From Candidatus Bathyarchaeia archaeon (GTDB taxonomy: Archaea > Thermoproteota > Bathyarchaeia > Bathyarchaeales > Bathycorpusculaceae): a stretch of 64,000 nt of DNA. The notes under the pieces were generated by a model. It worked only from the letters and a program-made list of their open reading frames with translations. It was not told the origin of the DNA and did no database searches. This document shows positions 1-16,624 of the stretch, in pieces. Where the stretch lies: NCBI GenBank assembly GCA_049522695.1, contig JBEKNP010000001.1, positions 4,261 to 68,260 on the forward strand, given 5' to 3'. Position numbers and translations under genes: made by a program. How positions within the stretch are numbered: position 1 is the stretch's first letter; every line of letters starts with the position of its first letter.

Positions 1-1
1 G

Positions 2-646
2 TACGCCTCGCTCATTGTCGTGCCAGTTACAGCAATAGTAATTGCCCTCGCACAACCAGGCATTGGCACTATATACCAAAACAAATATGCTGAGGCGCCA
101 TTATTTTTGGCGTTGTTGTCAATAACTTATCTTTATACTGCTTTCGGGAATTTGAGCATAAGCAACTTGCTAAACGGGCAAGGATTCACAAAATTCAACA
201 TGAATCTGTCTTTTCTTACCGCCGTGATTGGTTTCCCTGTGGGTTTCCTGTTAATTTCTCACTTCGGCGTCCTAGGATTAATTGCAACTTCCTTAACCGT
301 TGGTCTTCCAAGTGTATTCATAAGTTTACGTTTCATAAAAAAGCGCTTCGATGTATCAGTAGATTGGGAATCTTCCATCAGGATTCTATTTTCTTCATCA
401 ATAACCGCCATCTTAACATACGCTCTTATCTCTCAACTGGCTTTTTCCAACCCGATACGTCTAGTCATAGGCATTGTTGCCTTTGTACTTATTTTAATTC
501 CTGCAATTCTGGTTACTCGAACCATTAACAGGGCTGACCTGAATAGTCTTCGAGAAATTATTAATGTACTCGGACCTCTTCGCAAACCTTTGCTTTTTCT
601 CCTAAATATCATTGAGAAATTAATGACAATCTTTAATGCAAAGTAA
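2..646 (+). CDS. C-terminal part of oligosaccharide/polysaccharide flippase (Wzx-like), 5' truncated by window
   Basis: Frame open from position 2; multiple hydrophobic TM segments; lies just upstream of the rfb operon. Confidence 0.7.
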   Translation, partial: YASLIVVPVTAIVIALAQPGIGTIYQNKYAEAPLFLALLSITYLYTAFGNLSISNLLNGQGFTKFNMNLSFLTAVIGFPVGFLLISHFGVLGLIATSLTVGLPSVFISLRFIKKRFDVSVDWESSIRILFSSSITAILTYALISQLAFSNPIRLVIGIVAFVLILIPAILVTRTINRADLNSLREIINVLGPLRKPLLFLLNIIEKLMTIFNAK

Positions 647-1076
647 ATCAAATCAAAAACAGTGGCGACATTCCCAAGTTAAAGAATATTTAATGTACCA
701 GGCGATCTTCAGTTAAGTTTCCATCTATTTCCGCAGCAAACTTACTCTACTATTTTGCTAGTGCTCTGTACTTACCGCAGTAACTTCCGCCGACATGTGT
801 GCACGTGTAACTAGAGTTAGAGTAGAGATTGCACGCCGAGGTGAATTTGCATTTTATTCCTGGTTTGCGAAAAGACGACCATACATTAGGTTTAAGAGTT
901 GTTTTCGTTTTATATTCCCCTAAAAATAAGCGATCTCTAAGCTGTTATTACTTTTCAATCGCTAATAGGAGTATGTGATTGTACAAATACAGCCACAACT
1001 AAAATTCAAATAAACTTATTTAATTGATAATACTAAATGGTAATTAAAGCAAGCATCCAATGCATTTGTGATTATC

Positions 1077-2135
1077 ATGAAAGCACTTGTTCTCAGCGGT
1101 GGTAAAGGAACCAGACTTAGGCCTTTAACTTTTACTTGCGCTAAACAGCTTATTCCAGTAGCTAATAAGCCCATATTAGGATATGTTCTTGATCAGGTTG
1201 CAGCAACCAAAATTAAAAAGGTTGGTATTATTACTGCGCCTGAGACAGGACAGTTTGTTAAAGATTATGTTAATGACGGCTCAAACTGGAACCTTAACGT
1301 TAACTATATTCCTCAGGAACCGCTTGGTTTAGCTCACGCGGTCAAAACTGCTGGTCGTTTTTTGGGGCAGGATTCTTTCGTCATGTGCCTGGGGGATAAC
1401 GTTACTGGTCAAGGGTTGAATTCATTTGTTAAAAAATTTAAGAGTGAACATCTTGATGCACTTATTATTCTAAAAGAAGTTGAGAACCCATCGAGTTTTG
1501 GTATCGCTCAGCTTGATGACAAGGGTAATATTATCAAGTTGGTGGAGAAGCCTAAAACGCCAATTGGTAACCTTGCTATTATTGGCACTTACCTCTTTTC
1601 TAATAAGGTTCATCAGGCTATAGAAAAAATAAAGCCATCTTGGCGCGGAGAACTGGAAATTACTGATGCAATCCAAGAAATGATTAACATGGGTTTTTCG
1701 GTTAAAGCCGAAATCTTGAATTCTTGGTGGCTTGACACAGGTAAAAAAGACGATATTTTGTCGGCCAATGCGAGAATATTGGATGAATACGCAGAGCGGG
1801 ACATCAAAGGAACAGTAACAAACAGTTGTGTAGATGGCAGGGTTAAGGTCGAACTGGGAGCAAAAATAGTAAATAGTACAGTCAGGGGACCATGCGTAAT
1901 TGGAAAAAACGCGTCGATTGAAAACTCCTTCATTGGACCGTACACAAGCGTTGGCAGTGGCTCAGAAATTATTAATTCTAACCTTGAATATTGTGTTATA
2001 CAAGAAAACGTTGTCGTTAAAGATGTGGAGCGGTTAGAGGATAGTTTAATCGGCAAAAATGCGAAGGTTGCAAGAAATCAAAGGAACAGAACTATAAAGT
2101 TGCACGTGGGCGATTACTCAGAAGTGGAAGTCTAG
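1077..2135 (+). CDS. rfbA: Glucose-1-phosphate thymidylyltransferase (long form)
   Basis: LSGGKGTRLRPLT motif, KQLIPVANKP, WWLDTGK, C-terminal beta-helix-like tail; ATG at 1077 (GTG at 1068 is an alternative). Confidence 0.93.
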   Translation: MKALVLSGGKGTRLRPLTFTCAKQLIPVANKPILGYVLDQVAATKIKKVGIITAPETGQFVKDYVNDGSNWNLNVNYIPQEPLGLAHAVKTAGRFLGQDSFVMCLGDNVTGQGLNSFVKKFKSEHLDALIILKEVENPSSFGIAQLDDKGNIIKLVEKPKTPIGNLAIIGTYLFSNKVHQAIEKIKPSWRGELEITDAIQEMINMGFSVKAEILNSWWLDTGKKDDILSANARILDEYAERDIKGTVTNSCVDGRVKVELGAKIVNSTVRGPCVIGKNASIENSFIGPYTSVGSGSEIINSNLEYCVIQENVVVKDVERLEDSLIGKNAKVARNQRNRTIKLHVGDYSEVEV

Positions 2136-2201
2136 CCCCGAAAGCATGACAACTATTATAAATATTTTTAAAACATATGTTTAGCAAGCAAGTGAGGGAT
2201 A

Positions 2202-2708
2202 TTGACGTTAAAAGGGATAAAAATTAAACCAATATGTCGGTTACCCGACGAGAGAGGCTTCTTTACCGAAGTTATGCGTAAGGATTGGAAAGACTTATTT
2301 GCGGAAGACACAATTGCTCAAGCAAACCTTTCATTAACTTATCTCAACATTATTCGTGCGTGGCATAGGCACCTTAAAGGACAAACGGACTATTTTTTGG
2401 CGTTAAAAGGATTAATAAAAATCTGCGCATTTGATGAGAAAACAGAAGAAATAAACGAGATAATCTCCAGCGCTTTAGACCTGCAATTGGTGCGTATTCC
2501 TGGTCATTATTGGCATGGCTTCAAAGCACTCGGTAATGAACCCGCTATGCTGTTGTACTTCACCACTAACCTCTATGACCCTGCTAATCCCGATGAAGAA
2601 CGCAGGCCGTGGAATGATACGACAATAGTTCCCAAATCTTTAAACGGCAAGAAGGATGATGCACGTGTTGGTAAACCTTGGGACTGGAATTATCCCCCTC
2701 ATAAGTGA
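2202..2708 (+). CDS. rfbC: dTDP-4-dehydrorhamnose 3,5-epimerase family cupin
   Basis: DERGFFTE, RAWHRH and IPGHYWHGF cupin motifs; operon context. Confidence 0.85.
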   Translation: MTLKGIKIKPICRLPDERGFFTEVMRKDWKDLFAEDTIAQANLSLTYLNIIRAWHRHLKGQTDYFLALKGLIKICAFDEKTEEINEIISSALDLQLVRIPGHYWHGFKALGNEPAMLLYFTTNLYDPANPDEERRPWNDTTIVPKSLNGKKDDARVGKPWDWNYPPHK

Positions 2709-2714
2709 TGAATT

Positions 2715-3722
2715 ATGAAATTGTTAGTTACTGGCGGTTTAGGCTTTATCGGAAGCAACTTTTGCAGGTACATACTTGCGCGGTATCCTGATTATGAGTT
2801 GATAAATGTTGATAAGATAGGCATAGGATCTAACCCAGCTAATCTTCTTGATATTGAAAATGACAAAAGGTACACTTTCATAAAGGGTGACATTTGCAAT
2901 CCGCTGCTTATGAACAGGCTAATCCATCAAGTTGATGCTGTTGTAAACATTGCTGCTGAGACTCATGTGGACAGGAGCATTGCTGACCCCTACGTGTTTT
3001 TGCAGAACAATACACTTGGCACATTTACAATTTTAGAGGCGATACGCAGGCATAATCACAAGGCAAGGCTTTTGCATGTGTCCACTGACGAGGTTTACGG
3101 TGAAGCACTTGAAGGCTCATTTACGGAGAATACTCCGCCCAAGCCATCTAATCCTTACTCAGCTTCTAAAGCTGCCGCTGACATGTTTGTGCTATCCTAC
3201 TATAAGACTTATAATTTGAATGTGTCCATCACACGTTGTACGAATAATTTTGGTCCACGCCAACTTCCCGAAAAGCTGATTCCTAAAACCATTATCCGTG
3301 CGCTGAGGGATCTTCCAATACCGATTTATGGGTCTGGTCAAAACATTCGTGATTGGATTTACGTTAAAGATCATTGTGAAGCGATTGCAACGGTTCTTGA
3401 GAAGGGGAATGCTGGAGAAGTATACAATGTTTCAGCTGGGAACGAAATTCCTAACATTGAGATTGCAAAAAGAATTGTCGCGTTGCTTCATAAGCCTGAA
3501 AGTTTGATTACTTTTGTGGAAGATCGTCCTGGGCATGATACAAGATACAGTTTGGATTCTTCAAAAATAAGGTCTACGCTGGATTGGCAAGCTAAGTGTA
3601 GTTTTGAGGGATCTTTGGAGTCGACCGTTCGTTGGTACCTTAAGAATGAGCATTGGTGGACGCCGTTTGCTGCAGAAGTGATTCTTCATCCGACGCCTTG
3701 GAAGCTAGGTGGTCTGCATTGA
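2715..3722 (+). CDS. rfbB: dTDP-glucose 4,6-dehydratase
   Basis: GGLGFIG, AAETHVDRSI, STDEVYG, PYSASK, DRPGHDTRY. Confidence 0.95.
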   Translation: MKLLVTGGLGFIGSNFCRYILARYPDYELINVDKIGIGSNPANLLDIENDKRYTFIKGDICNPLLMNRLIHQVDAVVNIAAETHVDRSIADPYVFLQNNTLGTFTILEAIRRHNHKARLLHVSTDEVYGEALEGSFTENTPPKPSNPYSASKAAADMFVLSYYKTYNLNVSITRCTNNFGPRQLPEKLIPKTIIRALRDLPIPIYGSGQNIRDWIYVKDHCEAIATVLEKGNAGEVYNVSAGNEIPNIEIAKRIVALLHKPESLITFVEDRPGHDTRYSLDSSKIRSTLDWQAKCSFEGSLESTVRWYLKNEHWWTPFAAEVILHPTPWKLGGLH

Positions 3723-4609
3723 AACTTTTAATTACTGGCGCTAGTGGTCTCTACGGCTCCAAACTAGCTGAGCTTGCTGTTGCAAGAAATTTTGAGGTTT
3801 ATTCCTGTGACGTTCAGGAGCTACCGGTTTGTGGTAACTTTGTCAAATTTGACGTTTCAAATAATGAGCTGGTCAATGAAGCGTTTAAACGCGTTAAGCC
3901 TGACGTTGTAGTTCACGCAGCTACCCTGACTGATGTGGATAAATGTGAGTTGAATAAAGAGCTTGCTTGGAAAATAAATGTTGAAGGAACAAAAAATATT
4001 GCAGAAGCAGCTAAGAGCGCCGGATCTTTTTTTATTTATATTTCGACAGATTACGTTTTCAACGGTGAAAAGGGTAACTATAAGGAGTCAGATAAGCCTG
4101 ACCCTATTAATTATTACGGTCTAACCAAACTTAAAGCTGAAGAATTGGTAAAAGCTCAACCAGAATATTTTATTGCACGTTCAAGCGTAATTTACGGTTC
4201 AACTCCTGCTGCTGGAAAAGTAAACTTTGCTCTATGGGTAATCAATACTCTGCGTAAGGGTGAACGTGTAAAGATTGTTACTGACCAGTGGAATACTCCT
4301 ACATTGAACACTAATTTGGCTGAGATGACAATGGAGGTTGTTGAGCGCAGGTTAACTGGAACGTTTCATCTTTGCGGTGCCACACGCGTAAGCAGGTTCC
4401 AGTTGGCAGAATTAATCGCTGAAGCTTTTGGCTTAGATAAGAGCCTGATTGACTCTGCTTTGTCTTCACAGTTTAAGTGGCCTGCAAAACGGCCCATGGA
4501 TTCGTCACTTGATACTTCAAAGGCTCAGCAAATTCTGGGAAACAAGCCACTGGAGATTGGTGAAGCGTTGCAAAGGTTGAAGTTGGAGCTTTTAAGGAAG
4601 AGCCCTTAA
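3719..4609 (+). CDS. rfbD: dTDP-4-dehydrorhamnose reductase
   Basis: LLITGASGLYG, STDYVFNG, YGLTK, AKRP; TTG at 3719 overlaps the rfbB stop. Confidence 0.92.
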   Translation: MKLLITGASGLYGSKLAELAVARNFEVYSCDVQELPVCGNFVKFDVSNNELVNEAFKRVKPDVVVHAATLTDVDKCELNKELAWKINVEGTKNIAEAAKSAGSFFIYISTDYVFNGEKGNYKESDKPDPINYYGLTKLKAEELVKAQPEYFIARSSVIYGSTPAAGKVNFALWVINTLRKGERVKIVTDQWNTPTLNTNLAEMTMEVVERRLTGTFHLCGATRVSRFQLAELIAEAFGLDKSLIDSALSSQFKWPAKRPMDSSLDTSKAQQILGNKPLEIGEALQRLKLELLRKSP

Positions 4610-4668
4610 GTTAGACACAAGTGTTTATGTGTGAGTCTCATATCCTTTTGGTTATTTGGGAAGGCTAG

Positions 4669-5028
4669 ATGAAACCGACCGGTATTAAGCAAATAGCAAG
4701 GCAGCGAATCCAAATATTGTTTGAGCAGGCAAAGCAGGTTTGCAAAACTGATCCGCAGTTAGCCACGCAGTATATCAAGTTCGCAAGGAAGATTGCTATG
4801 GCTGCAAAAATTCGTTTGCCAGTTGAGTTTAGGCGCGAAACCTGTAAAAACTGTAATGCGTTGCTGGTGCAGAGTTATAATTGTCGGGTTAGGATAAAGC
4901 AGAAAAGGGAGCCTCATATCGTAATAACATGTTTAAACTGCGGCAACCAGACTCGTATATTGTTAGGCAAGAAAAAGGAGCAAAAGGAACTTGAGCAAAA
5001 TAACCACCAGAATGAAGCGCCATGTTAG
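4669..5028 (+). CDS. rnp4: Ribonuclease P protein component 4 (Rpp21)
   Basis: IARQRIQILF N-terminus, CKNC...CLNCG zinc ligands. Confidence 0.9.
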   Translation: MKPTGIKQIARQRIQILFEQAKQVCKTDPQLATQYIKFARKIAMAAKIRLPVEFRRETCKNCNALLVQSYNCRVRIKQKREPHIVITCLNCGNQTRILLGKKKEQKELEQNNHQNEAPC

Positions 5029-5290
5029 GCACGTATTGAAAGACGAGAATCCAACCATTTGGGTTGGCAAAGACGGCTTGACTCCTCAGTTGATAAGCGA
5101 AATTGAGAAACAACTGCAGCAAAACAAGATGGTAAAAGTTAGAATTTTGACTGCCGCTTTGCAAGGAGAAAATACAGCTCAGACGATAGCAGCTAAGGCT
5201 GCTGAGCAAACTGGTGCTGCTTTGGTTGAGGTTAGGGGTCACGTGTTTATTCTCTTTAGGAAGCGCAAAGCAGTAGAACCAACTGAATAG
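4991..5290 (+). CDS. yhbY: YhbY/CRM-domain RNA-binding protein
   Basis: PTIWVGKDGLT, MVKVRIL, VEVRGHVFILFR. Confidence 0.9.
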   Translation: MSKITTRMKRHVRHVLKDENPTIWVGKDGLTPQLISEIEKQLQQNKMVKVRILTAALQGENTAQTIAAKAAEQTGAALVEVRGHVFILFRKRKAVEPTE

Positions 5291-5647
5291 ACCTGAAAGT
5301 CAAGAATTCATCATACTCTTTTTTACATGAAAAAATGAATTGTTTATTGCCTTCAAAATCTTTGTGTACGCTTAATATTTAGGCGACCAACGTACACTGC
5401 CAAAGTCGTCACAGAGACCGCGTCCACAGCCGAAAAGAAATTATTTAACTTGCCCGTGCTCCTTCACATTTGACTTGGCTTGTTACCGCTACAATCTGCT
5501 ACGCTTCAGGCTACAGACTTTCCGTTTTCCGTGTTATTAATCATTTGATGCTGTTACTGCCAAGTCTTAGAATAGCTGGAACCAGTTCACGTAAAGCTTA
5601 AATTGTTCAGGCGGCTCTGGATTATGGTTACTTGAGGTTTTACTGAC

Positions 5648-6877
5648 GTGACAAATAACCAGCCTCTGCAGTTGTCTTCCAACGTCAACTGGGTCGGAGT
5701 CAACGACACAGAAACCCCACTTTTCGAAGGACTCTGGCGCATCCCCGAGGGCGTTTCCTACAACTCTTACCTAATTGTAGGCTCAGAAAAAACTGCACTG
5801 ATTGATTCTGTCCACGAGAAGAACGCACTTGAACACTTTGAAAAAATTAGCAAACTGACAGACTTCTTAAACATTGACTATCTGGTCATTAACCACATGG
5901 AGCCTGACCACACAGGTGCCGTATCTGCGCTTCTTACGAAAGCGTCCAACGCAAGAGTGGTTTTTACACCCATTGCCCAAACCATATTTAAAAAGTTCTA
6001 CGGTTTCGACCCCGCAGCAGTCATCGTAAAGGACGAAGCAGCAGAAATTTCCTTAGGAAACAAAACGTTAAGGTTTATTCAAACGCCTTGGCTTCATTGG
6101 CCAGAAACCATGAGCACCTACCTCGTGGAAGACAGGATGTTGTTCTGCTGCGATGCATTTGGCTCCTTCAAAAAACTGCCCGCTGATGCTATATTAGAAT
6201 CCGACATAGACATGGTCAAACAGAATATTTGCGGATGCTCGCAAAAGTACTTTGCCACGGTCTTCAATGGGCAACGCGAATGGATTCTGAAAGCCATAGA
6301 AAAATTTTACAAAATGAACCTCGAAATTGAAGTTTTGGCGCCCAGCCACGGTCCAGTTTACACCGACAATGCCAAGCAAACCATAAGTAAATGGGCTTCT
6401 TGGAGCAAAGGTACCTACACGAAAACTGTTGTCGTGGCATACGATACTATGTATGGAATGACTGCAAAGTGCTTAGATGCAATCGTTAAAGGAGTTAGGG
6501 AAGTAGGAGGCACGGTTCTAAGCTTCAATCTTTCTGAAGACACTGCTGTTGACGCATTAACTGCCTTGGTTGAGGCTCCGGCATTAATTGTTGGTTCGCC
6601 CACATATGAGCATGAGATATTTCCAAAAGTAGTCGATTTCCTGAATCTGCTTAAGACCAAAAAGTTTTCAAACAGATGTGCCAGTGTGTTCGGAAGTTTC
6701 GGCTGGAGCGGAGAAGCCACACGAAAACTATCAGTTGAGCTAACTACTTTGGGTTTCGAACTGGTGGAAAAGCCACTTTCAGTCTTCGGTAGTCCCACAA
6801 AAGAAGACCTTGAGAGGGCAAGTCAACTTGGCAAAGCAGTGGCGGAAAAAGCTTTTTCGAAATATGGCGCTGTGTAA
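5648..6877 (+). CDS. fprA: Flavodiiron protein (FprA, A-type flavoprotein)
   Basis: NHMEPDH, WLHWPE, CDAFG and PSHG diiron ligands; C-terminal flavodoxin domain (GSPTY, FGSFGWSGEA). Confidence 0.92.
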   Translation: MTNNQPLQLSSNVNWVGVNDTETPLFEGLWRIPEGVSYNSYLIVGSEKTALIDSVHEKNALEHFEKISKLTDFLNIDYLVINHMEPDHTGAVSALLTKASNARVVFTPIAQTIFKKFYGFDPAAVIVKDEAAEISLGNKTLRFIQTPWLHWPETMSTYLVEDRMLFCCDAFGSFKKLPADAILESDIDMVKQNICGCSQKYFATVFNGQREWILKAIEKFYKMNLEIEVLAPSHGPVYTDNAKQTISKWASWSKGTYTKTVVVAYDTMYGMTAKCLDAIVKGVREVGGTVLSFNLSEDTAVDALTALVEAPALIVGSPTYEHEIFPKVVDFLNLLKTKKFSNRCASVFGSFGWSGEATRKLSVELTTLGFELVEKPLSVFGSPTKEDLERASQLGKAVAEKAFSKYGAV

Positions 6878-6928
6878 GATAGCCGTTTGCGATTGTGGCG
6901 ACTTTGGTTTTCTTTTAGGTGTGTACAT

Positions 6929-7201
6929 ATGAAATCTACATCATCGCAAAGGCTCGAAAATGCTAACAGAAAACAAAATGCAAAAACAGTCGCTTGTATC
7001 CGATGCGGTGTGTGTTTGCGAGTTTGTTCCCATAACTTGAGTCCAGTTCTAATCAAAGAGGCCTTTGAAAAAGGTAAGAAGGAAAAGCTAAGAGAACTGA
7101 AAGTGGAACTGTGTAACGGCTGTGGAAATTGCAGTTATGTTTGCCCGTCAAGAATCGATCTTAAAAGCTCAGTGCTAAGAGCAAAATCATCGCTGCGTTA
7201 A
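6929..7201 (+). CDS. Small 2x[4Fe-4S] ferredoxin resembling the C-terminal domain of RnfC
   Basis: CIRCGVCLRVC and CNGCGNCSYVCPSRIDL motifs; ATG at 6929 after GGTG. Confidence 0.75.
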   Translation: MKSTSSQRLENANRKQNAKTVACIRCGVCLRVCSHNLSPVLIKEAFEKGKKEKLRELKVELCNGCGNCSYVCPSRIDLKSSVLRAKSSLR

Positions 7202-7284
7202 AAAAGAATTAAAGATCATTTACTATTTCCTCTTAATTCAAGAGTCAATAATCTTGTGTGGGCACTAATTCCTCTCAGAGAATA

Positions 7285-7292
7285 TTTATATT
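7285..7292 (+). promoter_or_regulatory. TATA box of the rps19e transcript
   Basis: TTTATATT about 50 nt upstream of the TTG at 7340. Confidence 0.45.
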
Positions 7293-7339
7293 AGGCTTCA
7301 TTGTTTAACTGCAAGGAAAAACAAAGGATTAGAACAATC

Positions 7340-7804
7340 TTGACTACGCCTCATGACGTTCCAGCTTCAAAATTCATCGACCGGTTAGCTAGGTATCTTA
7401 AGGAAAATGTTGATGAAGTTCAGCCTCTTCCATGGGCAACTTTTGCTAAAACCGGAAATCATGTAGAAAAGCAGCCGCAGAACCCGAACTGGTGGTATAC
7501 TCGAAGTGCATCTATACTTCGCAAAGTTTATGTTTACGGTCCAATCGGATTAGAAAAACTGCGCGCTGATTATGGTGGAAGAAAGAATAATGGTGTTAAA
7601 AAATCACATGTGGTCAAAGCAGGCGGAAACAACATTCGTAAGATTCTGCAGCAACTTGAGACTGCTGGTTTAATTCAAACGGCGAAGCCTCAGGGTAGAC
7701 GAATGACACCTAAAGGTCGTAAGCTGCTTCAGGAAGTTGCTGGAGACTTGTATAAGGAAATAGTTAAGACTGTCCCTGAGCTCAAGAAGTATCAAGGCGA
7801 ATAG
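7340..7804 (+). CDS. rps19e: 30S ribosomal protein S19e
   Basis: WWYTRSASILRKVY, YGGRK, RKILQQLE; start placed at TTG 7340. Confidence 0.95.
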   Translation: MTTPHDVPASKFIDRLARYLKENVDEVQPLPWATFAKTGNHVEKQPQNPNWWYTRSASILRKVYVYGPIGLEKLRADYGGRKNNGVKKSHVVKAGGNNIRKILQQLETAGLIQTAKPQGRRMTPKGRKLLQEVAGDLYKEIVKTVPELKKYQGE

Positions 7805-7809
7805 AAGCA

Positions 7810-8139
7810 ATGTCGGATGACGAGCTTGAGCAAATCCGCAAAAGAAAACTTTCATCTATGCAGCATAGAGTGAGTGATGAGCAGAGACAGTCCCAAGAAG
7901 AAGCGCAGTTTGAAGCTCAAAAGCAGGCGTTGCTGAACAAGATATTGGCCCCTGAGGCTCGGCAAAGGCTAAATAATCTAAAGATGGTTAAGCCTGAATT
8001 TGCAGGGCAAATAGAATTGCAGTTGATTCAGATGGCGCAGACTGGTAAGTTGCCGATTCCATTGTCGGATGATCAGCTCAAGGGAATATTGATTCAGCTT
8101 CAATCACGGAAGCGAGAACCAACAATTAGAAGGATATGA
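7810..8139 (+). CDS. PDCD5/TFAR19-family DNA-binding protein
   Basis: [27 protein letters not shown]; canonical position after rps19e. Confidence 0.92.
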
Positions 8140-8143
8140 AAAT

Positions 8144-8302
8144 ATGGCGCGTGTTAAACCTACGGCGAAAAAACTTAGGCTAGCTAAAGCTGGAAAAGAG
8201 GCAACGTCTGTTCCAACATGGGTAATTGCCCGAACTGACGGTAAAGTTAGAAATAACCCTAAGCAAAGACGAAACTGGCGAACTAGGAAAATAAAGGCGT
8301 AG
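8144..8302 (+). CDS. rpl39e: 50S ribosomal protein L39e (missing from ORF track, 52 aa)
   Basis: Hand translation [52 protein letters not shown]; VPxWV and RRNWR motifs. Confidence 0.93.
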
Positions 8303-8315
8303 GAGAAGTAAAGCA

Positions 8316-8816
8316 TTGGTTAAAGAAGACAAAGAAGAACAACAGAACGCTGAAGACGAAGAAGAAATGCCCGACCTTATTGAAGATGAAACCGCTAAGA
8401 AAGAAGAACCTGTTGAAGAAACGGTAAAAGAGGAGGCTCCAGCTGAAGAGCAACCGGCAAAAGAAGAGGCAGTAGAGGAAGAGGAAGCTAAACCTAAGAA
8501 AAAGAAAGAGGAAGTAGAAATTGTTGAAGAACGAACCTACACGATTCCTCTGCAGAAAGCGCTGGTTAGGCCGCCGAAAAAGCGTGCTCCAAGAGCAATG
8601 CAGCTTGTAAAGATCTTCATAACTAAGCATATGAAACTGGAAATGAAGGTTTCTGAAGAAGAGGAAGAGGAAGAGTTACCCCAGCTTCTAATAAGCCAGG
8701 AAGTTAACGAGAAAATCTGGGATAGAGGCATAGAGAAACCTCCGCGAAAGATTCGTGTTCGAGCAGCTAAAGACAAAGACGGGAACGTAACCGTTTACTT
8801 AGCTGAAGCTCAATAA
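8316..8816 (+). CDS. rpl31e: 50S ribosomal protein L31e with long acidic N-terminal extension
   Basis: Core ERTYTIPL...KKRAPRA...IWDRGIEKPPRKIRVR preceded by ~70 E/K-rich residues. Confidence 0.92.
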   Translation: MVKEDKEEQQNAEDEEEMPDLIEDETAKKEEPVEETVKEEAPAEEQPAKEEAVEEEEAKPKKKKEEVEIVEERTYTIPLQKALVRPPKKRAPRAMQLVKIFITKHMKLEMKVSEEEEEEELPQLLISQEVNEKIWDRGIEKPPRKIRVRAAKDKDGNVTVYLAEAQ

Positions 8817-9306
8817 AATAATTATTTCTTAAATTTTTTTCTTTTATTTTAGTGCTCCGGAAGAGGCTATACTCAATCAGCCAAACCAACAACTAATTTT
8901 TCACCGCCACATTGCTTGCAGGATTTTAGGGCAAAAATGGTGGGTTAAGCGGATTTAGCCAAGTGCCAACGTTGGCAAGGCGCAAAACAGCATGAGACGC
9001 CTTATCATATGTTAGCAGCCAGACCCGCCCAACAACAGGGCTCTTAGCTGATTCTTCTTCTTTCTTGTTATTTGGTTACGATTCTAAAGAATATAAAATA
9101 ATGTTGTCACAAATTGAAGCAACAGCCGCTAAGTTACTAAAACGATTTTGTGCGTAATTGCCCTTTGTGCCTATTCATTCGATTAAATACGCATAACAAT
9201 GTCACCTGATAGGAAATCAGGAAAAAGATAACAAATACCGCTAAAAAACACGACTTGCCAGTGAAAGAAGAGAAAGGCGAAGTAATAATTTATAAACCTA
9301 AAAAGA

Positions 9307-9432
9307 TTAGCATGATACCTTGAAACGATTGCCGCGTTCGGGGCAAGTGTAAACAGTTAAGCTGAAGTGAGAGTTTTCTATTTTCTTATCAGGCGTATCA
9401 AGCTTCTTTCCGCAGTTAGGACAGTTAACCAT
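9307..9432 (-). CDS. Small zinc-ribbon-like protein (41 aa)
   Basis: Hand translation MVNCPNCGKKLDTPDKKIENSHFSLTVYTCPERGNRFKVSC; CPNCG...CPERG pattern. Confidence 0.5.
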   Translation of the reverse strand: MVNCPNCGKKLDTPDKKIENSHFSLTVYTCPERGNRFKVSC

Positions 9433-9771
9433 TAAAAACGCACTTTTAAAAATTTGTCATCTAGGGTAGGGAATATTCATTTACATAGCATGGGTAAAAA
9501 GAATAAAAGGATAGGTGTGACCGACCAAGCAACCACAAATGCTCCGAATGCTCGCTTTCAATTGAACCGATTCATCCACTGCACTTGAAGGATGTTTCAC
9601 CCCTTGGCTTTTTGGCATTTTAGCCTTTTCTATCTATGCTCGATTTATCTAGACATTGTGAATAGGCAAGCAAGAAAAGCAATTTTTAATTGCTAAAACA
9701 GACCACAATCTAAAAAAAGGAGTATGCGTGAAACTTCGCCATTAGAACGTTTCATCAGGAGAAATTAGTTC

Positions 9772-10455
9772 TTGACCGTTTACTTATCCAGCATAGTTGG
9801 GAACTCAAGCATCAGTGTGTACTCGCTGGCCACAGAAAACATAGTGATAATTCCAAGAATGGTACCCAAGGAAAAAGCTCAAGAGTTCGCCGATTGGCTA
9901 AAAACCAAACTTGTCTATTCATCCATTGGCGGCTCAGTTCTTGCAGGTGCATTGGCATGCGCAAACTCGAACGGAATGCTACTTCCAAACTATATCCGAG
10001 AAGAAGAATTAACACAAATAAAATCTGTTTTTGAAGGCAATATCACAATTATGGAAACAAAAAAAACAGCTTATGGCAATCTTGTCTTGACCAACGACAA
10101 GGGTGCAGTGGTTGATCCGCGCTTTAAAGAAAAGGAAATTAAACAAATCTCCGAAACCTTGGGCGTGGAGGTGGTGCCAACAGAAATCGCAGGACTACCC
10201 TATGTCGGCTCCTTAGCTGTTGCAACAAACAAAGGCGTACTAGCTCACCCGTTGCTAAAAGATGAGGAAAGAACAATCTTAGAAAACGTTTTCAAAGTTC
10301 CCGTCGACGTGGGCACAGTTAACTGTGGGGTTCCTTATGTTGGAACTGGCTTACTTGCTAATTCGCACGCTGCCGTGGCTGGTTCTATGACAACAGGACC
10401 CGAGATGTTTATTATTGGGAATGCGCTGGATGTTGTGCAGGAAGATGAAAAATGA
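9772..10455 (+). CDS. eif6: Translation initiation factor 6
   Basis: GNLVLTNDKGAVV, GTVNCGVPYVGTG, TTGPE. Confidence 0.95.
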   Translation: MTVYLSSIVGNSSISVYSLATENIVIIPRMVPKEKAQEFADWLKTKLVYSSIGGSVLAGALACANSNGMLLPNYIREEELTQIKSVFEGNITIMETKKTAYGNLVLTNDKGAVVDPRFKEKEIKQISETLGVEVVPTEIAGLPYVGSLAVATNKGVLAHPLLKDEERTILENVFKVPVDVGTVNCGVPYVGTGLLANSHAAVAGSMTTGPEMFIIGNALDVVQEDEK

Positions 10456-10679
10456 AGGCTTTTAAAGTAACCGGCGAAATTAATAAGCCAAAGCTGGCAA
10501 CTCCATTCGTAAAAGAATTGTTAGCTGACAAAAGCGAGCATGCAGTGGAGAAGGTTTACGCTGAAATAGGCAGCAGACACCGGGTAAAAAGATGCCATAT
10601 TAAAATAATTAATGTTAAAGAAGTTTCTGCAGAGGAAATTGAGAACCCAATCTTAAAGAAAATCGTAAGTGGAGAATAA
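10452..10679 (+). CDS. rpl18a: 50S ribosomal protein L18a/LX
   Basis: MKAFKVTG, EKVYAEIGSRHRVKR. Confidence 0.92.
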   Translation: MKAFKVTGEINKPKLATPFVKELLADKSEHAVEKVYAEIGSRHRVKRCHIKIINVKEVSAEEIENPILKKIVSGE

Positions 10680-11121
10680 GCACTTGGCGCAAGGAAATAA
10701 ACCAGAGGAAGAACTTCGCAAACTCAGCATGGAAATGCAATATCTAGAGCAAACAGCAGACGCATTGCAACAACGCATCAGCATGGTAAACGCAGCTATG
10801 ACAGACTTAACTTACGCTAACATGACTTTGGATGGAATTGAAAAAGAAAAAGAAAACGCTGAACTTTTGGTTCCAATCGGCGGAAGCGCTTACGTAAAAG
10901 CTAAACTTGCAGACACTAACAAGGTAATTGTGGGATTGGGTGCAGGCGTATCCATAGAAAAAACCCTGCTAGAAGCAAAAACAACTCTAAAAGAACGGTT
11001 GAATGAACTGGAAAAAACCATGAACGCCGCTCAGCAACAGTTTACCCAAGTGGCTGACCGAATGAACAAAGGCAGAAGCAGGCTTGAAACTTTGCTTGCT
11101 CCAAGAGAAGGGAAAACTTGA
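10669..11121 (+). CDS. pfdA: Prefoldin alpha subunit
   Basis: LLVPIGGSAYVKA, VIVGLGAGVSIEK, flanking coiled coils. Confidence 0.93.
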   Translation: MENKHLAQGNKPEEELRKLSMEMQYLEQTADALQQRISMVNAAMTDLTYANMTLDGIEKEKENAELLVPIGGSAYVKAKLADTNKVIVGLGAGVSIEKTLLEAKTTLKERLNELEKTMNAAQQQFTQVADRMNKGRSRLETLLAPREGKT

Positions 11122-11125
11122 AGCG

Positions 11126-12031
11126 ATGTTTGAGAAGCTCAAGTCCGGTTTCAAAGGCTTAGTAAACAAAGTTACAACAACAGAACTTAAAGCTGAAAAT
11201 CTAAACCCTATTTTATCAGAGTTCAAAATGAGCCTAGCAGAAAACGATGTGGCTTTTCCAGTAGCAGAAAAAATCAGCAACGACCTTGAAAAGCGCCTAG
11301 TCGGCGTTCAAGTTAAACGCTTGGAAGACAGAAAAAAAATCGTTGAAGAAAACCTCAGACAGGTTCTTTTAGGAGTCATGCTTACCAACAAAAGAATTGA
11401 TTTGCTCAAGTTGGCGGATGAAAAACGCAAGAAGAAAGAGCCCTTCATCTTAATGTTTGTAGGCATTAACGGCACAGGAAAAACCACTACAATCGCAAAG
11501 GTTGCACAGTTTTTCCGGGATAAAGGCTACTCTGTAGTGCTTGCTGGCGCTGACACTTACCGCGCTGGCTCAATTGAGCAGTTAGAGGAGCATGGAAAAC
11601 GTTTAGGCATTCGAGTCATCAAGAGTAATTACGGCGGTGACCCAGCGGCAGTAGCTTTTGACGCTGTAAGCCACGCTAAATCACATGGAATTAACATTGT
11701 TTTAATCGACACTGCTGGTAGAATGCAGACTAATCAAAACTTGATGAATGAACTTGTTAAAGTGAAGCGTGTCGTTGGTCCTGACTTAACTGTTTTAACC
11801 GTTGATTCACTGATTGGTAACGACGCCGTCATGCAAGCGGAAGAATTCAACAAAGCAGTCGGCGTTGACGCCACAATTTTAACAAAAGTGGATGCAGACG
11901 TGAAGGGCGGCTCCGCGCTAAGCGTAACATACGTAACTCAGAAGCCGATTTTGTTCATCGGAGTCGGGCAAACGTATAAGGATTTAGAACTGTTTAACCC
12001 TGAAAAATTCGTCAACATGGTATTACGATAA
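11126..12031 (+). CDS. ftsY: SRP receptor FtsY (NG domain only)
   Basis: GINGTGKTTT, DTYRAG, DTAGR, TKVD, GVGQ motifs; ATG MFEKLK at 11126. Confidence 0.95.
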   Translation: MFEKLKSGFKGLVNKVTTTELKAENLNPILSEFKMSLAENDVAFPVAEKISNDLEKRLVGVQVKRLEDRKKIVEENLRQVLLGVMLTNKRIDLLKLADEKRKKKEPFILMFVGINGTGKTTTIAKVAQFFRDKGYSVVLAGADTYRAGSIEQLEEHGKRLGIRVIKSNYGGDPAAVAFDAVSHAKSHGINIVLIDTAGRMQTNQNLMNELVKVKRVVGPDLTVLTVDSLIGNDAVMQAEEFNKAVGVDATILTKVDADVKGGSALSVTYVTQKPILFIGVGQTYKDLELFNPEKFVNMVLR

Positions 12032-12032
12032 A

Positions 12033-12401
12033 CTACGGCTCCTCAATTTCCACCAGTTCAAAGCGTATTTTGCTTGGATAAACCCAATACGCTTTAATGA
12101 AGTCTTCAATGCTTTGATTCACATCTAAGGCTTCGAAAAAATTGATAAAAGCCTTATCTATGCCGCCCACGTTTTTTGATGTGTACACTCTCAAGTCAGC
12201 CAAATATTTCTTATCGACACTTAGCTTTTGCATCGAAATCATGCCTGGCACCTCTACCGCAAACATCAAATTCGTTAAAACGTCTAAAACGGCAACCTTA
12301 CGTACGCTTTCGTTTTTGGTTTTTACAACAATCAACCGTTTATCAAAAACCCTAAAATTCCAATCACTTTCTATATCTAAAGAAGCCGACATAACTTTCA
12401 C
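12033..12401 (-). CDS. Hypothetical protein (122 aa)
   Basis: Clean ORF convergent with ftsY; no recognised motif. Confidence 0.55.
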   Translation of the reverse strand: MKVMSASLDIESDWNFRVFDKRLIVVKTKNESVRKVAVLDVLTNLMFAVEVPGMISMQKLSVDKKYLADLRVYTSKNVGGIDKAFINFFEALDVNQSIEDFIKAYWVYPSKIRFELVEIEEP

Positions 12402-12719
12402 AATAAAACTAAGCTTTCCAGCTTAAAAAACTTAAAGAATTCTTGCGGAACCGTTTCAATAGTCTCTATAGATTATTTGTGAAACTCTTAAGAATATTGT
12501 AACAACTCTATGTTTTTGCCGAGAGATACGCAGAGCCAACAAAAAACAAGAATGCTTCAGCGAATCAACGTTTAACAAGCCCCAAATAACCCCCCAATTG
12601 GATTCCCCAATCTCTATCCTTCACCTGTTGAACGTTCGATTCGCTGAGCAATCGTTTTAAATCAGTTGCTTAAATTTGCCCTACTAAAAACCAACCGGCA
12701 AGTTTACTTTTGAGTAAGC

Positions 12720-12938
12720 CTAAGGTTTTGATTGTTCTTTTTTACATTTTGATGGGTCACGTAAATTCTGGATTGGCGAATTGCCCGAGTAGCCTAAGGA
12801 CGTTTGAGTTTTTTGTTTATATTTTTTCTCTGCTTCTTTCGCTTTGCTTTCTTTTGCGCTAAGTTCAACGCTTCCCTCAAGCTTACGTATAGTTCTGCCT
12901 AATCTGCGTTGACCTTTTGTTACCGTACATTTTCCCAT
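12720..12938 (-). CDS. Possible small basic hypothetical protein
   Basis: 72-aa K/R-rich ORF; no motif. Confidence 0.3.
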   Translation of the reverse strand: MGKCTVTKGQRRLGRTIRKLEGSVELSAKESKAKEAEKKYKQKTQTSLGYSGNSPIQNLRDPSKCKKEQSKP

Positions 12939-13010
12939 CTTTTGCTCAAGGGTAATTAACGCTAAAGTTAAAAAACCCTTCTAACTACTAGTTGTGTAGG
13001 TGATGTTTTT

Positions 13011-13424
13011 ATGAAAGCAAAAGTTAGAAATATAAAGCAAAAAGTGGTTATTCCAGCCTCTCCGAAAGAAGTTTACGAAGCCTATGTTGACCCGAAAAAG
13101 CACAGCCAATTCACAGGCAGCAAAGCCACAGGCAAAGCAGTGGTCGGCGGCAAATTTACTGCTTGGGACGGGTACATTTTTGGAAAATACCTTGAACTTG
13201 ACGATGGAAAACGTGTTGTTCAGGAGTGGACCTCGACCGATTTTCCAAAAGGCGCTGGTCCTTCAAGGTTAGAGTTATGTTTCAATAAGGTACCTGAAGG
13301 AACAGAACTTGTTATGGTGCATTCGGGCGTTCCAGAAGAGCAGGCGGATGAAACTGCTGAGGGCTGGATGGAGTGGTATTGGAATCCGCTGAAAAAGTAC
13401 TTTAGCAATCAATCAAAAGCTTAA
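13011..13424 (+). CDS. SRPBCC/AHSA1 (activator of Hsp90 ATPase homolog 1-like) protein
   Basis: ASPKEVYEAY, GGKFTAWDGYIFG, VQEW, GWMEWYW. Confidence 0.88.
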   Translation: MKAKVRNIKQKVVIPASPKEVYEAYVDPKKHSQFTGSKATGKAVVGGKFTAWDGYIFGKYLELDDGKRVVQEWTSTDFPKGAGPSRLELCFNKVPEGTELVMVHSGVPEEQADETAEGWMEWYWNPLKKYFSNQSKA

Positions 13425-13438
13425 TTGGAAAAAGTCAT

Positions 13439-14692
13439 TTAAGACGAATTTGGCAATACAAGTTTTTTGTTCTTTCCTTTCTTATCTTTGTCTATGCCTG
13501 AAAGGAAAAAGACGGCGGCTGAAACAGCCAGCAACACTGTTAGCGATATGAACATTCCATTGTAACGCAAAACCGATGCGAGGATTACGCCACTTATTAT
13601 GGGTCCAAGCACTTGCCCAACATCCATCATGGTGCTCAAAAAACCCATCGACGTGCCTACTAAGCTTTGGGGAGTTAGCTCGCACATCAAAGGCGCGGTG
13701 GAGGAGATTACCATTGCAAAGCCAAAGCCGTACCCAATTGAAATTGCAAGCAACAGCGGAAACTGCGTGGTGAATGGAACAAAAAACAAGAGTATGCCGC
13801 TGACTATGCAGCCTACAAAGATAGGTATGCTTCTGCTGCTTCTATCAGAAAAGCGCCCTATTATGGGTCTAGACAAAATCAAAGACACAATCTGCATACC
13901 CATAACCACAGAAACAACCAACGCATTAAAACCTGCCACTTCAATCATGTACTGCACCAAATAAAATTCCACCACACCGTAAACGTAGTATTGGCATGCT
14001 TGAACAAAACTTACAATCAAAGCACCCCTATTACGAGCGACCTCAACCCATCCCCGGAGTATCCTGCCCTTGGTCATCTTTGCTTTAGCAGGCGCCACAA
14101 CAGCTGTTTTACTTTCAGAAAGCAAAAGCAAGGCAATTACAAACGATGTGACACCTGCAATGCCAACCGCCAAGTATAACGTGTGGTAACCATAGTTAGT
14201 AACGAACAATATGGAGCCGCCCAAGAAAGGGGCAGCTCCTCTACCTATGGCTGTCGCCGAGTCGAAGATGGAGATGCGCTCGCCCCTATTTGCAGGGTAC
14301 CGCTCAGCAATTGAAGCTTCAGCTACAGGAACAAAAATCGCCGTCGCAAAGCCATGATAGAAGCGCACAAGCGCCAGCTGCCACCACACCGTTACAAACA
14401 GATAAAGGAATGGGGCGGAAGCGAAAACAAATGTGGCGAAAATGAGCATCTTTCTTCTGCCAAAGACATCTGACAGCGAAGCTGCCGGAAGGCTTACCAG
14501 TATGCCTGGAACAGTGGAGGCAGCCGCAATTACGCCGGTTAAGTCAGCTGGTGTTCCTAGTCTTATGGCAAAGGGGTTCAGCACTGGATCCTTTGACAGG
14601 GTTGAGCTTAAGATGGCAAACGCGCCCACTATACATATAACCCAGAAGTACCGAGTGGTTACCTTAGCGATTTTTCGCAGTTGCATTGACAA
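13439..14692 (-). CDS. MFS transporter
   Basis: Motif A (SLSDVFGRRKM) and second-half GRFSDRSSR; about 12 hydrophobic segments. Confidence 0.9.
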   Translation of the reverse strand: MSMQLRKIAKVTTRYFWVICIVGAFAILSSTLSKDPVLNPFAIRLGTPADLTGVIAAASTVPGILVSLPAASLSDVFGRRKMLIFATFVFASAPFLYLFVTVWWQLALVRFYHGFATAIFVPVAEASIAERYPANRGERISIFDSATAIGRGAAPFLGGSILFVTNYGYHTLYLAVGIAGVTSFVIALLLLSESKTAVVAPAKAKMTKGRILRGWVEVARNRGALIVSFVQACQYYVYGVVEFYLVQYMIEVAGFNALVVSVVMGMQIVSLILSRPIIGRFSDRSSRSIPIFVGCIVSGILLFFVPFTTQFPLLLAISIGYGFGFAMVISSTAPLMCELTPQSLVGTSMGFLSTMMDVGQVLGPIISGVILASVLRYNGMFISLTVLLAVSAAVFFLSGIDKDKKGKNKKLVLPNSS

Positions 14693-14919
14693 TCAACTAA
14701 TAACTTTTTGATAATGTGATATTTTGGCTTTTGCTTGCTAACGGCTGGACAACCGAGAAGACACACAAAAATTATCCGATACTAAAGCGAGGAGACAATT
14801 TTGCCGTTATGACAATGAGAAGGTTGCTTGCTGCCTTTATACAATTTATCGACAGCTAAAGCCGTAGCTTTAGTGTTACCTGGCTTTGAATAAAAACAAC
14901 CAATTTTCGGCATAAATTT

Positions 14920-15480
14920 TCACTTCACAATTTCCCTAATTATGCCATTAACCATTATCTTGGCGTTGTAGACGTATTCTAAATATTTTAGTCCCTGCTC
15001 CTGGTCCTCTTCGGTGAAGGCTTCTACCCCGTCTTTGACTATTACTATGTTGTACCCTCTGAAGAAAGCGTCAGCAGCCGTGTGACGCACGCATATGTGC
15101 GTATGCAACCCGCCCAGAACTACGGTTCTTACGCCTTCACCATTGTAGAGGCTCCGCAGAAGCGAATCTAAGCCTGTCTCGAAAAAGCCACTGTAAGTTC
15201 GCTTCTCCACAATTTAGTCTTTGCCTTCTTCAGGCTTAAGCTCAGCAATAACCTCTGCGCCAACCGAGCCTTTTATGGCATGGTTGCCCCATTTCCGCGT
15301 CACCTCAACGTCTTGCGGGTAATGAGCGTCGTTGCTTTAGATGACGGGCACCTCGTTTTTGCGTGCAGCCACAACAAGCCTCTGCAACTGTGGAATAACG
15401 GTTTTGGCACGCTCAACTTCTAATGTTCCAGTGACGAAGTCGTTTAGCATGACAACGATTAGGATAGTTGGGTTATCCAA
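14920..15480 (-). pseudogene. Isochorismatase/cysteine hydrolase family pseudogene
   Basis: Single frame from TTG 15480 with in-frame TAA at 15337-15339 and 15214-15216; catalytic-Asp motif reads IVVMLNDF instead of IVDMLNDF; KRTYSGF and HTHICVRHTAADAF retained. Confidence 0.85.
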
Positions 15481-15532
15481 AAATTTCACTCTCAACTAAA
15501 CAAAACTCACGAACGGACATTTTAGTTTTACT

Positions 15533-16624
15533 TTAAAGTTTTGCTTCTAACGAGTAGGATCCAATGGTAAGTTTCTCAGCGCCATCATGCGTGACGAAGA
15601 CGGTATCTTCGATTCTGACTCCGCCGTAACCTGGCAAGTAAATTCCAGGTTCATCCGTCACCACGTTGCCTGCTTCTAACGTGTCTTTGCTGTCGGTGCT
15701 CAAGGTTGGTGCTTCATGAATTTCCAAGCCTACACCGTGCCCCAGGTTGTGAACGAAAAACTCTCCATAACCACCTGCTTCAATTGCCTGCCTAGCTACG
15801 GCATCGACTTCCTTGGCTGGAATTTTGGGTTTTATGGTTTGGAAGGCTTTTTGATGCGCAAGTTTGACTGTTTTATAGATTTTTCTTTGTTTTTCGGAAG
15901 GTTTTCCTGCTGTGAAGGTTCGAGTCATATCTGAACGGTAGAAGTTGCAGGTTGCGCCTAAATCAACAACCACCAAGTCGCCTTCACGGATTGTTCTGTC
16001 TGAGCAGGAACCATGAGGAAAAGCTGAGGCGGCTCCTGAGGCAATAATGGTGTCAAAGCTGGTTCCGTCAGAGCCTTTCTTGCGCATTGCATACTCGATT
16101 TCGGCTGCCGCTTGCTTCTCTTTTACCCCTGATTTTATGGTTTCAAACGCTACTTGCATGCCTATACTTGCTAAATTGCAGGCCTCATGGATGTTCTGGA
16201 TTTCTTGATGATCTTTGATTTTTCGCATCTCGCGAAGGAGGTTGCCGGCTGGTTCGAGTTTTTCTTCGCTACCGAATGCCTTGGCAAGGGCACGCCAACT
16301 TTCAATTGGCAGAGTGTCCACGGCAAATTTGCTTGGATTCTTGGAGGCTGTTTTGTTAGCGATTTTTTCCATTAGGTTTTCGCCTCGTTTGAGGAGTTCC
16401 ACCGTTAACCCCTTGGTTTCTGCTTTTGCCTGCTCGTAATTAACTGCTGAAACGTACAGGACGCTTTCGCCTTGTTCGGGAATTAGCAGTGCGGTTGCTC
16501 CTGGGAAGCTTGTGAAGTAGGTTAAGTTGATGCCGTTAAAAATTAGAAAAAAATTGAATTTTCCTTCTTTAAATGCTGATTGCTTGAGAGCGTTTATTCT
16601 GTTCAAGGTTTGTTCGCCTAACAA
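15533..16624 (-). CDS. Xaa-Pro aminopeptidase/prolidase (M24)
   Basis: DLG, SDMTRT, HNLGHGVGLEIHE, EPGIY, GVRIED metal ligands. Confidence 0.93.
   Translation of the reverse strand: MLGEQTLNRINALKQSAFKEGKFNFFLIFNGINLTYFTSFPGATALLIPEQGESVLYVSAVNYEQAKAETKGLTVELLKRGENLMEKIANKTASKNPSKFAVDTLPIESWRALAKAFGSEEKLEPAGNLLREMRKIKDHQEIQNIHEACNLASIGMQVAFETIKSGVKEKQAAAEIEYAMRKKGSDGTSFDTIIASGAASAFPHGSCSDRTIREGDLVVVDLGATCNFYRSDMTRTFTAGKPSEKQRKIYKTVKLAHQKAFQTIKPKIPAKEVDAVARQAIEAGGYGEFFVHNLGHGVGLEIHEAPTLSTDSKDTLEAGNVVTDEPGIYLPGYGGVRIEDTVFVTHDGAEKLTIGSYSLEAKL

Follow-up and report, generated by a model that had tools for sequence, protein, structure and literature searches.

A Flavodiiron Protein Gene beside a Free-Standing RnfC-Type Ferredoxin Gene in a Variable Slot of a Bathyarchaeial Ribosomal Gene Cluster

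Gene Organization between yhbY and rps19e

We analyzed the region between yhbY and rps19e in a 64,000-nucleotide stretch of DNA (the window, whose numbering is used for all positions unless stated otherwise) from a soil/peat archaeon of the Bathyarchaeia, represented by a 2.8-Mb metagenome-assembled genome that is 96.5% complete (G000). Two genes occupy this slot: fprA-2, which encodes a flavodiiron protein (FDP), and sFd, which encodes a 90-aa ferredoxin. The open reading frames (ORFs) and their Pfam matches confirmed the first-pass annotation, which had placed an fprA gene and a 90-aa 2x[4Fe-4S] protein between yhbY and rps19e, and gave the following gene order on the plus strand: Rpr2, YhbY, a 357-bp gap free of ORFs, fprA-2, a 51-bp spacer, sFd, S19e, a PDCD5-like dsDNA-binding protein, L39e, and L31e. 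The comparison set comprised 120 species genomes of the genus, 111 of which carry S19e, and the slot was inspected in detail in approximately 40 of these 111. In four of them (G132, G029, G013, and G012), the slot is empty, with yhbY and rps19e 90–180 bp apart; the pair in G000 does interrupt the usual adjacency of these two genes in the ribosomal cluster, as had been proposed. In agreement with the first-pass annotation, neither a rubredoxin gene nor an F420 gene was seen next to the pair over approximately positions 1–16000, the part of the window over which the neighboring genes were read.

Comparison of G000 with G019, which lacks the fprA insertion, located the borders of the inserted segment. 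The two genomes are homologous from 5200 to about 5339 on the YhbY side and again at 6937–7400, and the segment between them (5340–6936) stands in for 90 bp of G019. In G004, G016, and G131, homology upstream of sFd begins at 6896–6908 of G000. The sFd orthologs carry a conserved B recognition element (BRE)/TATA element (aaacgtatataa) some 45 nt before the ATG, and a second conserved TATA box (gaatatttatatta) is present between sFd and rps19e; thus, sFd is normally a separate transcription unit. Cotranscription of sFd with rps19e was also considered and judged unlikely, because the conserved TATA box lies between the two genes. In G000, the sFd TATA box of the orthologs is absent, and the 3′ end of fprA-2 is found in its place. 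Since the native TATA box has been replaced, sFd can be expressed in G000 only by read-through from fprA-2 over the 51-bp spacer, which holds a T4CT4 run (6913–6921) after the fprA-2 stop codon and a GGTG Shine-Dalgarno-like site. The sFd gene starts with the ATG at 6929, and a longer ORF frame opens at 6887. The GTG start of fprA-2 is preceded by a GAGGT Shine-Dalgarno-like site, and an A/T-rich BRE/TATA-like element (AAAGCTTAAATT) in the region that travels with the gene is its putative promoter.

The fprA insertion is shared by one other genome, G104, which is 94% identical to G000 over 5200–6918 and also matches 7222–7400. In G104, the sFd leader is retained to within 10 bp of the ATG position; 171 bp of unrelated sequence follow, and homology resumes at 7222, exactly where it likewise resumes in the sFd-less G031. 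This gap in homology indicated that the sFd gene was lost from G104 and that fprA-2 was kept. Decay of sFd was also observed in other close relatives: the G019 copy has no in-frame start codon, the G086 copy has an in-frame TAG, the G105 copy has frameshifts, and in G087 only the last 54 bp of the gene are left as a 3′ remnant.

The G+C content gave no foreign-DNA signal for the fprA unit, a repeat search around it found no target-site duplications, flanking direct repeats, or long terminal repeats, and no integrase, tRNA, or mobility genes were seen at the slot. A search of positions 4500–10000 against Rfam, the 357-bp gap included, returned no RNA family. The part of this gap that is common to G104 only (table 1) has no ORF of at least 50 aa, no Rfam match, and no second copy in the genome. 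A 14-nt inverted match (5400–5413 with 6894–6907, 13 of 14 positions complementary) brackets the fprA unit, and its right arm falls within the leader of native sFd. The match could have arisen by chance or could be a trace of the rearrangement that delivered fprA.

Table 1. Features of the window around the slot between yhbY and rps19e.
Feature	Position	Strand	Basis and remarks
RNase P subunit Rpr2/Rpp21	4669..5028	+	Pfam PF04032, E 2.9e-18; syntenic in relatives; conserved left flank of the cluster
YhbY/CRS1 (CRM-domain) protein	4991..5290	+	Pfam PF01985, E 1.1e-18; left border of the variable slot
Noncoding stretch common to G104 only	5340..5504	.	blastn boundaries; outside the fprA unit of other genomes
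fprA-2 upstream region, travels with the gene	5505..5647	+	Homology to nonsyntenic fprA-2 loci begins between 5505 and 5640
fprA-2, class A flavodiiron protein, 409 aa	5648..6877	+	ORF, Pfam, NCBIfam, and PDB matches
fprA-sFd spacer, 51 bp	6878..6928	+	Native sFd 5′ region from about 6896
sFd, 90-aa free-standing RnfC-type 2x[4Fe-4S] ferredoxin (CIRCGVCLRVCS ... CNGCGNCSYVCP)	6929..7201	+	Pfam, PDB, NCBIfam, Foldseek
sFd-rps19e spacer, right slot border	7202..7300	+	rps19e TATA box ATATTTATATTA at 7282-7293, conserved in all relatives
Ribosomal protein S19e	7301..7804	+	Pfam PF01090, E 2.1e-49, residues 18-152

To the right of the slot, the true start of S19e is probably the in-frame TTG at 7340 (MTTPHDVPA...) rather than the TTG at 7301, because the TATA box lies only about 10 nt before the latter; the 167-aa ORF call would then be over-extended. 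L31e (8316–8816) has an acidic, E/K-rich N-terminal extension of ~70 residues before its Pfam domain (residues 73–152); the extension is found in relatives too, where tblastn matches set in at residue 73 and there is little conservation before it. Between rpl31e and eif6 lies a 955-bp ORF-free AT-rich spacer (8817–9771) that differs among relatives and holds a dispersed repeat of ~250 nt (about 8930–9180). Diverged copies of this repeat occur on contigs C10, C87, and C80, and the corresponding spacer of G016 has two. Rfam gave no match here, and neither strand showed a fold-energy signal.

sFd and the RnfD-Like–Ferredoxin Fusions

Profile, sequence, and fold searches all matched sFd best to RnfC, so that its resemblance to the RnfC C-terminal domain, which the first-pass annotation had read from motifs, extends beyond the motif level. 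The best NCBIfam match was rnfC (TIGR01945, positions 344–432 of 435, E = 1.9e-16), followed by RsxC and rnfC_Methano; the next family, NuoI, was nine orders of magnitude weaker, and dhsB (TIGR00384) reached only E = 1e-4. In the PDB sequence search, the best matches were RnfC of Acetobacterium woodii (9eri_C, residues 364–433) and of C. tetanomorphum (7zc6_C), with FrdB (1kf6_B) at E = 5e-3. The dicluster families of Pfam (Fer4_7, Fer4_17, and Fer4_10) were matched above gathering thresholds (PF12838, 37.7 bits, cut-off 27; PF13534, 37.3 bits, cut-off 22.2). The top five Foldseek hits were RnfC chains (TMq 0.57–0.59), and HdrC (5odc_C) appeared only at E = 4.5; the AlphaFold2 model used for this search, built from an alignment of 25 sequences, was poor (pLDDT 58.6), and the fold search is thus weak corroboration only. 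Seven of the eight cluster Cys residues are invariant in these 25 sequences and the eighth is at least 90% conserved, with His in one row; the G000 protein keeps all eight. We concluded that sFd belongs to the RnfC C-terminal type and is not a generic, HdrC-type, or SdhB/FrdB-type ferredoxin. It scored 59.7 bits against the TIGR01945 cut-off of 245.95 for full-length RnfC, and no split N-terminal part of RnfC lies upstream of it, where fprA-2 directly precedes it. Literature searches turned up neither a stand-alone RnfC-type ferredoxin nor an RnfD–ferredoxin fusion, and sFd is a new stand-alone variant of the RnfC-type domain.

Canonical Rnf was not found in the 96.5%-complete genome: the searches gave neither an rnfA match nor a full-length rnfC, and there is no rnf operon. 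The single RnfD-like gene lies outside the window on contig C6 (G000:C6:14121–15503; L002:1492–2874, minus strand) and has no other rnf genes around it. Its 460-aa product joins an RnfD-like polytopic membrane domain (TIGR01946, residues 40–360) to a C-terminal RnfC-type dicluster domain (residues 385–459) and is without the [ST]G[AS]T flavinylation motif. Such RnfD-like–ferredoxin fusions form a family of at least 1,376 proteins, in which the named matches are Bathyarchaeia; they are usually annotated as "RnfABCDGE type electron transport complex subunit D," and a ~720-aa form adds FrhB_N/FrhB_C domains. Relatives of 440–465 aa were initially candidates for RnfC paralogs, a reading that was rejected because NCBIfam identified them as RnfD-like plus Fer4 fusions. 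Over its 72-residue core, sFd is 52–65% identical to the fusion domains in a gap-free alignment, as against 38–45% for the true RnfC proteins of the genus.

In the domain tree (IQ-TREE, a short alignment of 72 columns), the sFd proteins formed one group (ultrafast bootstrap/SH-aLRT 74/94) that was a single branch in 78% of bootstrap trees. This group fell inside a 97/94 clade together with fusion types A, B, and C, the internal order of which is unsettled given the short alignment, and the true RnfC proteins were outside. Thus, sFd most likely arose once in this lineage by "domain liberation" from an RnfD-like–ferredoxin fusion. The first-pass annotation had spoken of a detached RnfC domain: the type was correct, and the source has to be changed, since this genome has no canonical Rnf from which the domain could have come and the parent would be a fusion protein. 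We also considered whether sFd is what is left of a disrupted gene for full-length RnfC or for a fusion at this locus and rejected this reading, given that fprA or yhbY lies directly upstream, that the orthologs have promoters and start codons, and that the ratio of nonsynonymous to synonymous substitution rates (dN/dS) is 0.08.

In public data, 29 small sFd homologs were found, and a free-standing sFd is found in about 18 of the 120 species, nearly always about 100 bp upstream of rps19e. The exceptions are G004, G130, and G084, where 3–4.5 kb separate sFd from rps19e, and G092, where the copy is elsewhere. The gene is under purifying selection, with a median dN/dS of 0.08 over 73 pairs (72-codon core). 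For the G000 copy, dN/dS was 0.10–0.20 versus G004, G016, and G131, and 0.5 versus G019, a pair with few substitutions.

fprA-2 and the Variable Contents of the Slot

fprA-2 matched flavorubredoxin/FprA models over its full length (NF008887, positions 3–394 of 396) and Moorella FprA (1ycf_A) end to end (E = 4e-65). Its N-terminal metallo-beta-lactamase-like domain (PF19583 ODP, E = 1.6e-25, residues 36–235) is followed by a flavodoxin domain (PF00258, residues 263–391), with no further domains in the 409 aa, and the diiron ligand pattern (HMEPDH ... WLHWPE ... CDAFG ... PSHGP) is present in the translation. On these grounds, the FDP of the window is an ordinary class A protein with predicted O2/NO reductase activity.

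The genus has two FDP paralogs. FDP-1, the housekeeping paralog, about 34% identical to fprA-2, is nearly universal, and orthologs of fprA-2 (63–94% identity) were found in about 32 of the 120 species. Among the 32 fprA-2 loci inspected, the window included, the gene occupies the yhbY–rps19e slot only in G000 and G104; all others are in unrelated contexts, where the recurrent neighbors are NifS/NifU-like genes or a DUF3795-like Cys-rich protein. No sFd or other small dicluster ferredoxin lies beside fprA-2 at any of the inspected loci other than that of G000, so that fprA-2 and sFd are adjacent at one of the 32 loci. The first-pass annotation had named two observations that would refute its proposal: a lack of linkage to fprA in relatives, which is what these loci show, and grouping of the small protein with generic ferredoxins or HdrC, which the searches above did not show. 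Nucleotide homology among the loci is confined to the gene and 10–140 bp upstream (about 5505/5640 to 6877/6907 of the window); thus, fprA-2 behaves as a single-gene accessory unit. The FDP-1 gene of G000 is located outside the window on contig C81 (C81:400–8200), within a compact oxidative-stress cluster that also encodes an OsmC-like protein, rubrerythrin, Fe/Mn superoxide dismutase, a 105-aa ferredoxin, a pyridine-nucleotide disulfide oxidoreductase, a glutaredoxin-like protein, and a ferredoxin-thioredoxin-reductase-like protein. Genome-wide, no stand-alone rubredoxin gene was found, one rubredoxin domain being present inside a 588-aa frame on another contig; of the F420 genes, cofD is present and cofH was not found.

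The contents of the slot vary widely across the genus. Apart from the empty slots, nine genomes carry a small cupredoxin gene on the opposite strand, three (G003, G088, and G026) carry ~1 kb of sequence without assigned content, and three (G019, G035, and G020) carry sFd alone. A ~5.7-kb cassette encoding UbiA, an AsnC-type regulator, a UbiE-like methyltransferase, cupredoxin, cytochrome b, a Rieske/cytochrome b5 fusion, and a polyprenyl synthase is present with sFd in G016, G131, G004, and G105 and without it in G138, G087, and G089. In the cassette loci (L079 of G131, 2296–7801; L078 of G016, 8422–14191; L098, L099, and L112), cytochrome b has 503 aa and the Rieske/cytochrome b5 fusion has a twin-arginine translocation signal; judged by its genes, the cassette looks like a complex-III-like module. 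Bathyarchaeia are usually regarded as a strictly anaerobic class. In nine further genomes (G083, G117, G079, G085, G109, G130, G084, G128, and G086), the slot holds sFd and a tricarboxylic acid (TCA)-type island with SucCD, SdhAB, citrate synthase, a GlcD-like FAD oxidase, and an FMN-dependent dehydrogenase (L080 of G083, 1596–7895; L089 of G117; L082 of G085, 8398–15913). SdhA, SdhB, sFd, and S19e follow one another on one strand in G083 and G117, with gaps of 83–134 bp. Finally, fprA together with sFd is found in G000 only, and fprA without sFd in G104.

Origin of the Pair and Comparison with Known Systems

We proposed that the fprA–sFd pair is probably a fortuitous juxtaposition of two independent accessory genes in a hypervariable hot spot between yhbY and rps19e. 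In this lineage, sFd would have entered the slot before fprA-2. It would be a lineage-specific small soluble ferredoxin freed from a fusion membrane protein; its gene is ordinarily driven by its own BRE/TATA promoter, and rps19e, which has a promoter of its own, follows about 100 bp downstream. fprA-2, which would move between members of the genus as one gene plus a short upstream region, may have inserted immediately 5′ of sFd in an ancestor shared by G000 and G104 and replaced the sFd TATA box. Afterwards, sFd would have stayed intact in G000, dependent on read-through, and would have been deleted in G104. In Rnf, the RnfC ferredoxin domain docks on RnfD and passes electrons between riboflavin in RnfD and FMN in RnfC (PMC12174285); because of this function of the homologous domain and because of its origin, sFd should be a soluble carrier, presumably a general one for low-potential single electrons. 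Its likeliest exchange partners are, most plausibly, the RnfD-like–ferredoxin membrane proteins or the neighboring SdhAB and Rieske/cytochrome b modules, and if electrons reach FprA-2 in this strain at all, the transfer would be an opportunistic one and not that of a partnership evolved for the purpose.

Several points weigh against a fortuitous juxtaposition. fprA-2 and sFd are co-oriented and 51 bp apart, and sFd retains its ATG, its GGTG Shine-Dalgarno-like site, and all of its ligands, so that a new fprA–sFd operon with real electron transfer is conceivable. The genome-wide search yielded no free rubredoxin gene that could serve as the donor of FprA, ferredoxin-dependent FDPs exist elsewhere, and the redox or O2-related nature of many neighbors of sFd in the slot may point to some looser functional tie. 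The single origin of sFd in turn depends on a domain tree of 72 columns with moderate support for monophyly.

Among the alternatives, the one that survives best, although we consider it unlikely, is that the sFd of G000 is a silent relic that has been unexpressed since the loss of its promoter and has not yet accumulated disabling mutations. The replacement of the TATA box by the fprA 3′ end, the T4CT4 run after the fprA stop, and the presence of all decay stages in close relatives (G019, G086, G105, G087, and G104) fit this explanation, as does the dN/dS of 0.5 between G000 and G019, a value that comes from very few substitutions. However, the gene has an undisrupted ORF that still encodes all eight Cys, it keeps the ATG and the Shine-Dalgarno-like site, the dN/dS is low versus G004, G016, and G131, and a spacer of 51 bp could plausibly be crossed by read-through in an archaeon.

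It is still less probable that sFd is a subunit or shuttle of the respiratory and TCA modules of the slot, that is, of the anchor-less SdhAB or the Rieske/cytochrome b–cupredoxin cassette, possibly acting via the RnfD-like–ferredoxin protein, and that fprA displaced such a module in G000. The SdhA-SdhB-sFd-S19e arrangement on one strand of G083 and G117, the cassette divergent from sFd in four genomes (G016, G131, G004, and G105), and the island headed by a polyprenyl synthase, again divergent from sFd, in six more genomes would all suit such a role, and the RnfC ferredoxin domain is the very part that docks on RnfD in Rnf (PMC12174285). Nevertheless, sFd stands alone in G035, G020, and G019 (in the last without a start codon), and the cassette occurs without sFd in three genomes (G138, G087, and G089). 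The upstream partner varies among genomes and sFd has its own promoter; moreover, G000 keeps sFd though it is without the bc cassette and SdhA, an SdhB-like match on contig C45 being all that it has.

The proposal of a functional donor–acceptor unit, in which a newly formed operon would pass low-potential electrons from sFd to the FDP for O2/NO reduction, is improbable. The common strand, the short spacing, and the intact sFd with its Shine-Dalgarno-like site speak for it, as do the removal of the sFd promoter by the insertion, which couples any expression to fprA, and the absence of a stand-alone rubredoxin and of a detected cofH. However, the adjacency is confined to a single fprA-2 locus, G104 kept fprA and lost exactly sFd after the shared insertion, and sFd, which predates the insertion, is present in the slots of about 15 other species that have no fprA there. 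In addition, the gene for the housekeeping FDP-1 is part of an oxidative-stress cluster elsewhere in the genome that encodes another small ferredoxin, and F420H2 is still a possible donor given the presence of cofD. There is an equally slim chance that sFd is the soluble partner of the orphan RnfD-like–ferredoxin fusions, which abound in Bathyarchaeia, the two together forming a so far undescribed minimal Rnf-derived membrane electron-transfer system. Its variants would take electrons from a fused FrhB module or from the free ferredoxin, and the system would link low-potential electrons of the cytoplasm to the O2-, quinone-, and TCA-related accessory modules gathered beside sFd, including FprA-2 in this strain.

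Taking the juxtaposition as probably fortuitous, we see several consequences. A proposed new feeding route for FDPs is unsupported, which spares bench effort on it. The locus offers a clean natural case in which an RnfC-type dicluster module was turned into a free-standing ferredoxin and then lost repeatedly, and it draws attention to a large, unstudied family of RnfD-like–ferredoxin fusions in Bathyarchaeia genomes that lack Rnf. Labels such as "Rnf subunit D/C" on these fusions are misleading and can yield false calls of Rnf energy conservation in metabolic reconstructions. The hot spot in an archaeal ribosomal cluster also points to the exchange of oxygen-, quinone-, and TCA-related genes among soil/peat Bathyarchaeia, which bears on how a nominally anaerobic class copes with oxic soils.

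Compared with known systems, sFd shares with the RnfC C-terminal ferredoxin domain (9eri chain C and 7zc6 chain C; 33–37% identity) the two CxxCxxCxxxC(P) motifs, a helical linker of ~28 residues, and the ...CPSRIDL...RAK tail; however, it is a stand-alone protein of 90 aa without the NuoF-like FMN/NADH domain and the N-terminal barrel of RnfC, and, unlike in Rnf, this genome offers it no RnfC FMN domain to feed. With the RnfD-like–ferredoxin fusions, among which it nests on the tree, it shares the HNLSP(I/V)LIKEAF and CPSRIDL signatures, but where the fusions carry an RnfD-like membrane domain of ~360 residues, sFd has only a variable N-terminal tail of ~20 residues. fprA-2 has the full-length two-domain architecture and diiron motif of class A FDPs such as Moorella thermoacetica FprA (1ycf), the core of E. 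coli flavorubredoxin, and the F420H2 oxidase FprA of methanogens (2ohh/6frm), with E values from 4e-65 to 2e-54; it differs from them in being without a rubredoxin domain and in being an accessory second paralog with a mobile, nonsyntenic distribution. The slot itself resembles accessory-gene hot spots between core genes, a kind of chromosomal integration site that shows no recognizable mobility genes, in its fixed flanks (yhbY and the rps19e promoter), its many alternative cargoes, and its repeated gains and losses, whereas, in contrast to typical hot spots, it lies inside an archaeal ribosomal/RNA-processing cluster and its cargo is mostly respiratory, TCA-, and O2-related.

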